The notes beneath the pieces were generated by a model. That model ran no database searches, was not told the DNA's origin, and was given only the letters and a program-made list of their open reading frames with translations. From positions 178,932,001 to 178,996,000 of the forward strand of contig OZ024742.1 in NCBI GenBank assembly GCA_964016885.1: DNA of 64,000 bases. The letters run 5' to 3'. Of the stretch, positions 14,829 through 57,475 are shown one piece after another. A program made the translations under genes and the position numbers. This stretch comes from Eledone cirrhosa (lineage: Eukaryota). Each line of letters begins with the position of its first letter. The first letter of the stretch is position 1.

Positions 14829-15232
14829 AGGAACAAGTATGACCCCGACGGCAGAGCTCAAGCCGTTTCGACGGCTATTTCTGGGCGGCTATTTCAGTCC
14901 AGAAATAGACGTCGAAACGGCTTGAGTTCTGCCGTCGGGGTCATACTTGTTCCTATTACCCATTCTGCTACCCTTAGTATTGAGTGCTTCGGTGCGTTAT
15001 GGTACATCTGGTTCCTTACCACTATTCCTTCGTTATATATATATATATATATATATATATATACATATATAACAACAAAGAGGGTGTGGTAAGATACCAG
15101 GTGGTCTATAACGCACCAGAGTACTCAATACTTAGGGTGGCAGAGCGGGTAATAGGAGCCGTTTCGACAGCTAGATCCAAAACAGCTGTCGAAACGGCCG
15201 GAGCTCAATCGTCGCGGTCCTGACTCTTTTCC
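14829..15232. mobile_element. Family A fold-back insert: diverged copy (14829-15033) plus an inverted variant (~15071-15232), in (TA)n
   Basis: ~55-bp inverted arms aggaac...tttcgacggcta/...gtcgaaacgg...gttcct plus an ~80-bp tail ending ccttcgt. Confidence 0.85.
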
Positions 15233-16491
15233 TATATATATATACATATATATATATATATATAAATATATATATATACACACGCACACACACAAACACA
15301 CACACACACACACACACACACACACATATATATATATATATATATATATATATATATATATATATATATATATACACACACACATATATATATATATATA
15401 CACACACACACACATATATATATATATATATATACACACACACACACACACACACACACACACATATATATATATATATATATATATATATATATATATA
15501 TAGACATATACAGACACACACAACAGTATTTGGAGAGATAGTCTGCCAATTGTAGTTTTTTATTTATTTATTTGTTAGCCAACAATTTAAAAATAAGTTA
15601 CGATTGGTGGGCGTAATTTCATTGACAGAAAGAACTTTCTGAATCACACAGATACGCATGTTCACAAAAAATATATATGCATATATACATACATATATAT
15701 ATATATATATATATATATATATATATATATATATATATATATATATATATATATATATATATATATATATATATATATATATATATATATATATATAAAT
15801 ATATGTATCCATACATACATATGTATATATATATATATATATATATATAAATATATGTATCCATACATACATATATATATATATATATATATATATATAT
15901 ATATATGTATGTGTGTGTGTTAAAACAAACAAAAAAAAACAAAAACAATAGCGAAGAGTGCAGTACAAACAGCATTAGTATTAGGTTCACGCTTGAGAGT
16001 GATATATATATATATATATATATATTACATATATCTTTGACAAAGCCTATCCCATTCACTGAAATATCGTATAATAATCACCTTACAAAATCGAAAGCCA
16101 AATAATGGCCGCCCCTCGTGAATCATTTTTCTGATAGTTAATTAACGTGTAGCATGCCAAACTGTGTTTGATATAACGTTTTACACTATTGTGTATTGTA
16201 AATATGTAGGAAACTTGAGGAGCATTTATGAATGTCTGCTGTCGTGATGTATAACTTTTAGGTCTTTTGAGAAGGCTAAACAGAATACGCGGAGGAAATA
16301 TAATTATATTTCGTATAAACTTCTTTCTGTTTATCCGTATTTTTTAATTTTTTATTTTTGTAATTATTGTTGTAGATATCTTCATTTTATTTAAACTTAC
16401 ATATACATAAACATACGCACATAGATATATACGTATATATATATGTATATATATGTATATATATATATATATATATATATATATATATATA

Positions 16492-16777
16492 TATTGTTAT
16501 GCTTTGGGAGGGTCAGAAACGAAATATATATATATATATATATATATATATATATATATATATATATATAAATATATATATATATATATATATTTCGTTT
16601 CTGACCCTCCCAAAGCATAACAATATATATATATATTTATAAATATATAATAAATTGAAGTGAAAGCAACTGGTGCGTGTGTTTCTTATTGGCAACATGA
16701 CCCTCCCAAAGTATAACAATATCGGTTTCAACACACGATTTCAGATAAAGAATCTTGCTAAACAAATTCAGAAACGA
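16492..16777. mobile_element. Family B pieces: mini inverted repeat enclosing (TA)n (16492-16625) and a 3' portion (16650-16777)
   Basis: accctcccaaag(c/t)ataacaatat and tcagaaacga are shared with 17591-17908 and 32480-32743. Confidence 0.85.
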
Positions 16778-17590
16778 TATATATATATATATACATATAT
16801 ATATTTAAGGCTAGAGTTGAGCAATCGAACGGAGGGAATGGCCCCCTGTTTAACAATAATCATAGATAACTCCTAACAATCCTTTTCATGTTTATATGTA
16901 CCAAAAAATCTATTTAAGTTATTGAATCAACACTTTCGTTTACTCACCTTTCCAACGTCTAAATATTCAACACTTTGACTGACTAATAACCTTCATTGTT
17001 TGTTTGGTTTACTATCGTATATAGAATATCACATTACACCTTTGTAATTTAACACATGAGATTATGATCTAATGATGCCCCCATCACTGAGATCAGAGAT
17101 CACTTCACCTCTATATATTTGTAAATACAAACTTGATACTGCAGTTTTACTTCTACTAAATTTCACTCACAAAACTATAGTAGAAGACTCTTGCCTAAAT
17201 TGCCCTACGCTGGGACTGAACCTGAAACTCCATGGCTGCAAACAAACTCTTTTACTCCACAGCGATGTGGAGTCAAACGTATATGTACGAGAATATAGAT
17301 ACTATTCATTAGATAATATAAAATATTTTCATTAGTTTAATATATATAATATTCATTAGTTAATTTTTCAACGTCAGTGAAAACAGATCTCAAAACTCCT
17401 CTCCAGGATCGTAAAATGAGGGAACCTTCGTTGGTTTCGACAATGAGAATTCGATCAAGGGAACTTTATATTTAAGTATAAGTGGGTGAAAATTCTACAG
17501 ACATGTGTACTCTTAATGTTATTTCCAAGCCGGATCAGCACAACATATAGGTACAATCGTATATATATGTCTATATCTATGTATATATAT

Positions 17591-17987
17591 ATATTGTTAT
17601 ACTTTGGGAGGGTCATGTTGCCAATAAGAAACACACGCACCAGTTGGTCACTTCAGTTTATTATAATAAATTTATAATAAATTTATAAATTTCTGGTTGG
17701 TTGGTTGGTTCCACAACCAGATAGTTGTTTATATATAGTCATAGTTTATAAATTTATAAATTTATTATAAATTTATTATAATAAACTGAAGTGAAAGCAA
17801 CTGGTGCGTGTGTTTCTTATTGGCAACATGACCCTCCCAAAGTATAACAATATCGGTTTCAACACACGATTTCAGATAAAGAATCTTGCTAAACAAATTC
17901 AGAAACGATATATATATATATATATATAGGAACAAGTATGACCCCGACGGCAAAGCTCAAGCCGTTTCGACGGCTAATTCTGGACTA
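17591..17987 (+). mobile_element. Family B fold-back insert (17591-17908) followed by a family A half-arm (17928-17987)
   Basis: Inverted arm attgttatactttgggagggtcatgttgccaataagaaacacacgcaccag mirrors 17801-17851; TA flanks. Confidence 0.85.
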
Positions 17988-18126
17988 ATATATATATATA
18001 ATATAGAAGTTGCTTCTACAGTAAAAGTACTGTCTCATTACTGTGGTTACCCTCGATTGAACCCGGGATAAACTTTTATATATATATACCATATATATAT
18101 ACCATATATATACCATACTAATTCAA

Positions 18127-18181
18127 ACTGCCTGAAGAGGTCACAGCCAAAGATGGCTGTCACTGAAATATATATAGCAGT
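18127..18181 (+). ncRNA. Minimal type I hammerhead ribozyme
   Basis: ACTGC-CTGAAGA-GGTCACAGCCA aaga TGGCTGTCACT-GAA-ATATATAT-A^-GCAGT; 5-bp stem I, paired stem II. Confidence 0.85.
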
Positions 18182-55203: not shown

Positions 55204-55459
55204 ATATATACATTTATATATATACATATATTTACATACATATATATATATATATATGTATATCACATATGCAACAACACAGCACGCCATTTTTCATTCC
55301 TATACATATATATATGTATATATATATATATATATATATATATATATATATATATATATATATATATATATATATATATATATATATATATATATATATA
55401 TATATATATATATACAATGATATTAAAATAAATGGAAACTATATTTATAAAACCATACT

Positions 55460-55520
55460 TATTCTATTATATATATTTCAAGGGTACAAAAACTTTGGTA
55501 CGCTTTCATCAGATAAAATA
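55460..55520 (-). ncRNA. Minimal type I hammerhead ribozyme (family G)
   Basis: TATTTTAT-CTGATGA-AAGcGTACcAAA gt TTTtGTACcCTT-GAA-ATATATAT-A^-ATAGAATA. Confidence 0.85.
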
Positions 55521-56050
55521 CAAAGTGTATTTCATAAATTTTGACATAGCCAAGGAACATACCTTATCAGTTGAATTTTCCTTGGATAAATATACTTTCC
55601 CATTTATTTAATATCATTGAATATTTACTCCAAAACTGTCGAGTGCTCTGAATCAGTTATAAACATTTTATATTTGTTGAATTACCAAGAAACTAAATAT
55701 CCATTCTGCTTATATATATATATATATATATATATATATATATATATATATATATATATATATATACATATTAGTGCGTGTGTGTGTGAGTGTATGTATG
55801 TATGTATATATATCCGACAGCCGATTGACTCCAGAAAACAATGTTTCCATTAGTTTTTCCAATTGCTAATACTATCAATCGGTCGCAACTCCATGTAGGG
55901 GCAACGAGAAATAAAGTGTCTTATATATATATATATACATATATATATATAGTTATGTATATATACTAATATATGTGTGTATATTTGTATATGTATGTCT
56001 GAGTGTATATATATATATATATATATATATATATATATATATATATATAT

Positions 56051-56389
56051 ATATTATCAAGAAAACGAAAAATCAGTGATGCATCTGGACTTAGTTTATT
56101 TCGTGTTACAAATGTTTCGCCGGCATGTAGCTCGAGTCATGGTCCTTGTATGGATCTGGCTGATTCTACTTCTGCGGCTTCTTTCAGACACGTCTGTTAT
56201 GTCCGGAGCAAATTTTATCAGATAAAATTTGCTCCGGACATAATACCCGTGTCTGAAAGAAGCCGCAGAAGTAGAATCAGCCAGATCCATACAAGGACCA
56301 TGACTCGAGCTACATGCCGGCGAAACATTTGTAACACGAAATAAACTAAGTCCAGATGCATCACTGATTTTTCGTTGTCTTGATAATAT
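56051..56389. mobile_element. Near-perfect 339-bp palindrome (169-bp arms, centre 56220) with a short tail to ~56460, in (TA)n
   Basis: Direct reading; a few mismatches near 56193/56245. Confidence 0.95.
56248..56338 (+). ncRNA. Atypical type I hammerhead ribozyme (mirror on the minus strand at 56102-56192)
   Basis: CGTGT-CTGAAAGA-aGCCG...(52 nt)...CGGC-GAA-ACatttGT-A^-ACACG. Confidence 0.75.
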
Positions 56390-57270
56390 CTACTCTGAAT
56401 AATATCGAGTGCTTATTTTGGCATACCGCCTACGGAAGCACCATAGCTACCACTATACACAAATATATATAATGTATACATATATATGTTTGTGTGTATA
56501 TATATGTGTGTGTGTAGATACATATATGTGTGTCTATATATATGTATGTGTGTGTGTATATATATACATGTATATTTATATATGCATATGTGTATACATA
56601 TATATATATATATATATATATATATATATATATATATATACACACAAATATATATATATTTTCATATATATGTATATATATATATATATATATATATATA
56701 TATATATATATATATGTGTGTGTGTGTGTGTGTGTGTGTGTGTGTGTGTGTGTATACGTCCACGTACATATAAAGCGAGAGAGAGAGAGATTTGGCACGT
56801 AAATTCGTGTAGAGCACCTTGTTTTCATTTTCGACAAAATTAAAATCTAATTGATGTTACAATTATGAAATTATGCATTCTGTCGGATTAAAGAAAAAAT
56901 AATCTTTAAATAATACACCTTGGTCTTTTTCATTTTTATTTTTATTTGTAAGGAATTTTAAGTATTTCTTCAATTATAATATATATACATATATATATAT
57001 ATATATATATATATATATATATATATATATATATATATATATATATATATATATATATATATATATATATATATATATATACACATATTTAGACATACAC
57101 ATACATACATACATAGATATACCTGTAGTTACGACCGATAGACAGTATTGGCAATTGGAAAGGCCAACGGAAACATTGTTTCCTCGGCCCGATTTGACGA
57201 AAGTCGAATGACAAATATTATATATATATATATATATATATATATATATATATATATATATATATATATA

Positions 57271-57475
57271 ACGAAGGAAATGTGGTAAGGAACCAGATGA
57301 ACCCTAACACACCATAGTACTCAATACTTAGGGTAGTAGAGTGGGTAATAGGAACAAGTAGGACCCCGACGGCCGAGCTCAAGCCATTTCGACGGCTAAT
57401 TCTGGACTCCAGGATTAGTCCACAATTAGCGGTCGGAATGGCTGGAGCTCAGCCGTCGGGGTCCTACTTGTTCCT
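57271..57475 (-). mobile_element. Family A fold-back insert (older, diverged)
   Basis: Consensus match with several substitutions. Confidence 0.9.

Follow-up and report, generated by a model that had tools for sequence, protein, structure and literature searches.

Mirrored arms, variable centres and one-sided tails in short (TA)n insertions of Eledone cirrhosa, probably the 3' ends of a Penelope-like retroelement

A stretch of 64,000 nt of the Eledone cirrhosa genome (assembly GCA_964016885.1, contig OZ024742.1, positions 178,932,001 to 178,996,000), hereafter the window, was analysed for a short hairpin-plus-tail element, here called family A. The window has 30.5% G+C and consists to about 28% of simple repeat, which dominated the output of a whole-window repeat scan. 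Copies were searched for with BLAST against the window, using the copy at 26654 as query. An earlier note, made from the sequence alone, had described about 11 copies of a ~190-bp element, always flanked by TA, and 11 copies were recovered between 14829 and 57475, all with (TA)n flanks. Eight have both full arms, in two the tail-side arm is mostly gone, and one is a single tail-less arm. The whole insertion measures ~190 nt, with inverted arms of 50–61 nt and a one-sided tail of 75–82 nt. The arrangement is head-to-head, inverted and 5'-truncated in 10 of the 11 copies, and the tail is confined to one side in all ten two-arm copies. The hairpin folds ~10–25 nt 5' of a GAAAC motif, and the ten centres are all distinct, both as the note had read them. 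Every copy in the window is truncated no more than ~15 nt upstream of the AATTAGCC segment.

The copy at 26654 serves as example. Its short, tail-less inverted arm (26654..26705, minus strand, 52 nt, no mismatches) would represent a second complementary DNA (cDNA), and its 2-nt centre (26706..26707, plus strand) the junction of two cDNAs. The long arm (26708..26759, plus strand), as read from the sequence, has the internal start site discussed below at its 3' end and holds GAAAC (26719–26723), a palindromic GAGCTC loop (26729–26734) and a GTC ending at 26741 on the plus strand, a putative hammerhead-like 3' half. The 80-nt one-sided tail follows (26760..26839, plus strand), with a hairpin of ACTC (26767–26770) and GAGT (26787–26790).

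Both arms and the tail are also present at 14829..15034 (plus strand), where the centre contains an 11-nt repeat of arm sequence, and at 20343..20535 (plus strand) and 50331..50515 (minus strand), which share a lineage; the centre direction is ambiguous in the former and the latter has a 3-nt centre. Arms are identical and the tail is present at 36069..36265 (plus strand), with a 5-nt loop compatible with snap-back, and at 41935..42134 (minus strand). The copy at 35002..35199 (minus strand) has a 1-nt loop, an inverted arm that is longer at the centre, and a short arm running 4–5 nt beyond the usual end, and the oldest-looking copy, 57270..57475 (minus strand), has an inverted arm reaching further upstream than the tail-bearing arm. 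In a copy of a diverged subfamily A' (the 15085 copy, 15070..15233, minus strand) the inverted arm is complete and the tail-side arm is a stub, from which the sequence jumps directly to the internal start site. At 18762..18923 (plus strand) the tail-side arm is a stub of 22 nt, followed by a jump to a point just upstream of that site. The single tail-less arm lies between TA repeats at 17928..17989 (sense on the minus strand), where the internal start would have been used alone. The short arm had been thought to stop always at TAGGAAC; besides the longer arm at 35002, the diverged copy ends at TAGGAA. The centres quoted in the note for minus-strand copies had been given on the plus strand, so that the apparently longer arm was reversed.

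The mirroring of the arms was evaluated in the eight complete copies over 51 columns. All four mirrored variants quoted earlier were found, and left arms grouped with their own right arms, in no case lying nearer to the right arm of a different copy. Left-to-own-right distances summed to 11; the average over all pairings was 29.4, and 4 of 40320 permutations were as low. The arms are identical in three of the eight copies. The mirrored variants had been described as copy-specific. They are instead common to lineages (20343/50331, 35002/36069, 18762/41935 and 14829/17928), segregate at 12–41% in genome-wide reads, and mark source lineages, not individual copies. Substitutions that are really confined to one copy occur on a single arm (11 differences over 8 x 51 nt). 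In all four same-lineage pairs the centre or the 5' end differs. One lineage variant, located immediately upstream of the arm, is carried by the inverted arm at 20343 and by the sense arm at 50331. Since mirrored variants are shared within lineages whose centres differ, the inversion is built at insertion, which agrees with the proposal that the inverted arm is made afresh each time. The more diverged the tail, the more the two arms mismatch (rho 0.83, p 0.012, n=8), as formation at insertion would predict; this, together with the one-armed private substitutions, argues against continuing arm-to-arm conversion.

Two raw-read runs and two contig sets were mapped on the non-palindromic half 41935–42076 of the copy at 41935. 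In two reduced-representation runs of organism A, 23,911 of 12,467,656 and 24,636 of 12,785,554 records matched family A; run X4 of organism B gave three matching pieces only. Family A is abundant and very numerous in the genome, as a statement of abundance and not of copy number, which reduced-representation libraries do not give. The short-arm end, 42013, was joined to TA repeat in 3543 and 3079 reads. A non-palindromic upstream continuation with one common motif was present in organism A in 1468 and 1539 reads behind 42063 and in 775 behind 42075, and the template is therefore linear. This motif had no exact match in the window and 13 near matches, none in a family-A centre, so that no copy folded at a long native hairpin. 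Among the 15 read joints listed (28 in all), 14 change strand. The tail-bearing half stops 2–6 nt upstream of the internal start (42016–42020) in 7 of these 15, and the inverted arm ends at 42057–42075 in 13, irrespective of where the tail half stops. Strand-changing joints were present in the two raw-read runs and in one contig set.

The lengths of the two arms bear on how the inversion arises. The note had attributed it to snap-back of a cDNA at a pre-existing RNA hairpin. A snap-back cDNA copies only its own content, and its inverted arm should therefore never exceed the tail-bearing arm upstream. The inverted arm does reach further upstream in two of nine family-A centres, at 35002 by 2–3 nt and at 57270 by 8 nt. 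The same direction was tallied in seven sister families of the window, in which 26 insertions were mapped, 19 of them two-piece; families E, G, I and K and the single insertions 23805, 56050, 60605 and 49075 lie outside the tally (nested, with no inverted piece, or with no reference). The tail-less arm was longer in 14 of the 19, in 12 of them by 10–146 nt, shorter in three, and equal or unclear in two. Loops of 0–2 nt occur in four palindromes (26654, 35002, 39120 and 56050). Hairpin loops of 0–2 nt are too short for a self-primer. Pairing at the junction amounts to 0–1 nt at 18762, 26654 and 41935. Single tail-less arms occur at 17928, 24824 and 33600. The longer tail-less arms, the read joints, the short loops and the single tail-less arms together favour two independently primed cDNAs over the snap-back. 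The resolution of the short-arm end by mere TA microhomology, also proposed in the note, is disfavoured as well, because the same end is used alone in those three single arms and matches a published second start of Penelope-like elements (PMC11167929).

With a probability of about 0.6, the insertions arise from two cDNAs that are primed on both target strands, one at the tail end and one at a fixed internal site, stall in the same zone and are end-joined. On this view family A would be what remains, after strong 5' truncation, of the 3' end of a Penelope-like retroelement with (TA)n as its target, whether autonomous or not. Each of the two target strands would be nicked and would serve as primer for a separate cDNA, both templated by a single RNA or by sister RNAs from the same source copy; one cDNA would start at the tail end and the other at the internal site 80 nt upstream. 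The two would mostly come to a halt within a zone of ~15 nt immediately 5' of the hammerhead-like GTC-GAAAC half, and end-joining of their 3' ends would follow. The arms would mirror each other because they have a common template, the centre would differ because every joint is a separate event, and one arm alone would carry the tail.

Several observations weigh against this account. The tail-bearing arm is the longer one in six of the nine family-A centres (one further centre is ambiguous), as would be expected from snap-back too, and 36069 is well accommodated by a snap-back stem of 4 bp with a loop of 5 nt. Palindromic stubs followed by a jump occur at 15085, 18762, 51528 and 38427 and resemble a deletion or a brief snap-back. 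Insertions with unequal arms might have started as full palindromes and been shortened on one side afterwards. In the read mapping, the reference end at 42076 caps the joint positions, and symmetric centres are mostly invisible, most molecules ending at 42066, an AATT site. In published experiments in vitro both strands used both start sites alike, a behaviour that alone would not account for one tail per insertion (PMC11167929). As to the retroelement itself, no reverse transcriptase or GIY-YIG frame was found among the 30 of 305 stop-to-stop window frames scanned with Pfam. The CTGAnGA that the note had suggested looking for 5' of the arm is absent from all family-A copies in the fold-back scan, and Rfam gave no hammerhead in the family-A half, with two chance matches only.

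The likeliest rival is the snap-back itself: the cDNA that carries the tail would fold on itself at a hairpin, serve as its own template and reach the target through TA microhomology, and copies with unequal arms would result from later deletion in unstable palindromes. It would give mirroring without two templates, it accommodates the six centres and the stem at 36069 just described, and self-priming has been proposed for such junctions, there on an antisense template (PMC3846280). It requires secondary deletion in 14 of the 19 sister insertions, all tail-side (14 vs 3; two-sided binomial ~0.013), and again for the seven read joints clustered at one site among the 15 of 28 joints listed; the 0–2-nt loops, the pairing of 0–1 nt at three of the junctions and the upstream read motif without a counterpart in any family-A centre also stand against it, and we regard it as unlikely. 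A hybrid, in which the tail-end cDNA covers only the tail and the internally primed cDNA snaps back to make the second arm before joining the tail cDNA, would explain the four stub-plus-jump insertions, the tail halves stopping at the internal start in reads, and mirroring from a single RNA without strand displacement. It forbids a tail-side arm that extends beyond the inverted arm, which is seen in six of nine family-A centres and 3 of 19 others, and it appears improbable.

Three further explanations concern the hairpin as such. If it were inherited from a few palindromic masters of a fold-back or MITE-like (miniature inverted-repeat transposable element) DNA element, the mirrored variants would also be lineage-level and not private, and the TA flanks would fit. 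The repeats are non-terminal, centres or 5' ends differ within all four same-lineage pairs, the upstream variant changes arms between 20343 and 50331, and reads continue linearly upstream, all of which makes inheritance very hard to uphold. A MITE or fold-back DNA transposon was rejected for the same reasons: the 80-nt tail lies outside the repeat, so that terminal inverted repeats fail, and masters fail on the four pairs. The earlier note had likewise set the classical MITE aside, a judgement borne out by the tail and by centres that are not inherited. Homogenisation of the arms after insertion by arm-to-arm gene conversion is known to be open to palindromes and would suit the three copies with identical arms; with private substitutions staying one-armed and accumulating with tail divergence, it is scarcely credible. 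Chimeric reads can yield perfect palindromes, so that an assembly or long-read fold-back artefact was also considered, and the defined ends in 11 copies, the one-armed substitutions and the joints that change strand in both raw-read runs and in one of the contig sets reduce its probability to almost nothing.

Family A is a genuine feature and behaves like an insertion of a Penelope-like element, an architecture already known. PMC3846280 describes inverted repeats that meet head-to-head in a palindromic junction, a tail of 31 bp being optional, and proposes self-priming; PMC8557442 describes an inverted 5'-truncated copy, a one-sided tail of 30–40 bp, a (TA)n bias and, in some Naiads, half-core hammerheads. 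Elements of the endonuclease-positive (EN+) Penelope-like group (Penelope/Poseidon, Neptune, Naiad) thus share with family A the head-to-head 5'-truncated copies, palindromic junction and one-sided tail, and Neptune and Naiad also the (TA)n target (PMC3846280, PMC8557442); the mechanism of the inverted one-tailed insertion is stated to be open in both papers. Family A differs from them in that the insertion is only ~190 nt, the tail is 80 nt and not 30–40 nt, only the 3' half of a putative hammerhead is seen and no open reading frame (ORF) was linked to it among the frames scanned. Halves that barely overlap distinguish L1 twin priming from family A, in which they often overlap fully into a palindrome; in L1 the second target strand reportedly primes internally on the RNA, at a variable site and not a fixed one, and the inverted 5' part is said to join a 3' part that stops near it (Ostertag and Kazazian 2001).

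Another parallel is the purified Penelope-like protein of PMC11167929, which nicks and extends both strands, two RNA start sites delimiting the tail. In this Anolis Poseidon element, PAc, the target is also AT-rich; the starts lie in an AC-rich stem loop bounding a short tail, and inverted products and arm mirroring are outside the analysis given in the accessible text. Minimal hammerheads were defined in PMC4209133, where opposite-strand pairs 100–700 bp apart are noted. Type I minimal hammerheads of Penelope-like elements have the same GAAAC-palindrome-GUC 3' half as family A, and sister families in the window have full cores; in family A no CUGAnGA was found and helix III would be longer, at 6 bp. 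Animal non-LTR (non-long-terminal-repeat) retrozymes are, like family A, short, non-coding, hammerhead-related and proposed to depend on Penelope, and differ in forming head-to-tail tandem arrays (PMC7229834; bioRxiv 10.64898/2026.07.22.740005). With no head-to-tail tandem among the 11 window copies, a retrozyme was rejected. Five family-A motifs had no match in the consensus file of PMC8557442, in which line breaks may hide one, and of 11 window or read motifs compared with the supplement of that paper, nine had no match and two had one chance match each in unrelated sequence. A literature search, with most subscription journals and older Penelope reviews outside its scope, returned no paper in which arm lengths or mirrored variants serve to decide between snap-back and dual priming.

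Family A is probably a Penelope-like 3' end, and only probably, because no ORF is linked to it and the hammerhead is incomplete: the copies hold just the GAAAC-palindrome-GTC half, which resembles a hammerhead 3' half. The reads extend only 30 letters upstream of the family-A ends, and CTGAnGA is absent, by eye, from this loose-end consensus, to ~50 nt upstream of GAAAC. The half folds no better than shuffles (z 0.03). In the whole-window Rfam scan, the 150 of 529 matches listed were almost all to microRNA-type models and all below gathering scores. Pattern scans of metagenome, viral and prokaryote genome collections found no family-A locus. A 46-codon open frame runs through the element and had one match among 1.84 billion proteins, P0001, judged spurious; it was rejected as a homologue as a tandem repeat whose 68-residue unit was matched 24 times at 22.7 bits each. 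A coding role for the frame was unconvincing: of 35 common variants, 15 are synonymous in it, compared with 10 and 12 for the other frames.

The fold-back scan of the window gave 39 local inverted matches, many of them in other short families, and a full CTGAnGA...GAAA core is present in several. In family B the minimal hammerhead core is complete and the geometry is that of family A: the short arm ends 18–19 nt after GTC, and the 80-nt tail shares an 11-nt motif with that of A (17 matches vs 2.9 expected), outside which the A–B alignment is weak. One of the full cores of the fold-back scan, at 24357–24401, matches Rfam Hammerhead_1 (E 4.8e-6, 31.7 bits), just under the gathering score of 34. 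In 8 of 12 family types, namely families A, B, C, D, G and L and the insertions 23805 and 56050, the tail holds an RCTC-loop-GAGY hairpin 2–21 nt from its beginning, on the 3' side of the internal start and close to it; among background windows the hairpin occurs in 242 of 8359. The associated p of 2e-10 is optimistic, the motif having been found post hoc in the same sequences. Two family types carry the covariant GCTC/GAGC. Sister families that have full hammerhead cores share this tail hairpin, and the geometry, with family A.

Other arrangements were also observed among the sister families. Both pieces of a family B insertion (21277–21459) begin at the tail end, which gives true terminal inverted repeats, and both arms of a family C insertion (33987–34304) begin at the internal site, which leaves a tail on neither side. 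Family E copies at 50170–50252 and 15940–16004 begin at a small CTC/GAG hairpin and are tail-only insertions. A fold-back at 23810–24548 is a very young insertion: its 264-nt arms, each with a near-canonical hammerhead, are 100% complementary and enclose a centre of 110 nt. In family H (51528–51685, 48604–48722, 47044–47156, 33598–33674 and 24824–24878) the hammerhead blocks follow the order cleavage site, GAAA, CUGAUGA, type SGC of PMC10085705. Pairing in helices I and III holds for 35 of 37 cells, and three pairs are compensatory (21 of 500 shuffles as high, with only five sequences), and helix II is not evident. By eye, the octopus Naiad consensus 3' end in the supplement of PMC8557442 has the same block order.

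A relative of family A at 36344..36450 (minus strand) shares the GAAAC/GAGCTC/GTC half, has a different 3' end and lacks the inversion. In the same TA tract, two lone 12-nt pieces identical to its 3' end (35892–35903 and 35972–35983) may represent abortive insertions or a local duplication. Elsewhere in the window lie a decayed DDE transposase fragment (28961–29182; PF01359, E 2e-6), a probable non-LTR reverse transcriptase remnant, by eye, at ~39700–40850 with a C2H2-like stretch below the Pfam cut-off, and long degenerate trinucleotide-based arrays at ~700–13100 and 61650–63330 in which strand skew is extreme (GC skew up to 0.97).

A more speculative and rather doubtful extension of the dual-priming account concerns what sets the start and the stop. 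The Penelope-like 3' ends of this clade might work with two starts and one stop. The RCTC/GAGY tail hairpin might bring a second reverse transcriptase into position on one and the same RNA, and the stop, further upstream, might be set by a pseudoknotted, non-circularly permuted hammerhead with its cleavage block ~24 nt upstream of the fold zone, so that both cDNAs would run off the self-cut 5' end and then be joined. Two leads point in this direction: by eye, the loose-end read consensus contains a 6-nt complement of the strand after GAAA, at an agreement of only 0.53, and sister family H has the order cleavage–GAAA–CUGAUGA with three covarying pairs in helix I. Permuted hammerheads have been reported from metatranscriptome and genome searches (PMC10085705); if true, the suggestion would place one in an animal retroelement.

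For Penelope-like elements, the high number of family A, its lineage variants that mark the template and its junctions that record the stop would allow self-priming and dual priming to be told apart by counting alone. A concrete candidate for the feature that fixes the second start is the tail hairpin. The value of family A lies in this hairpin and in the evidence that its junctions give for dual priming.

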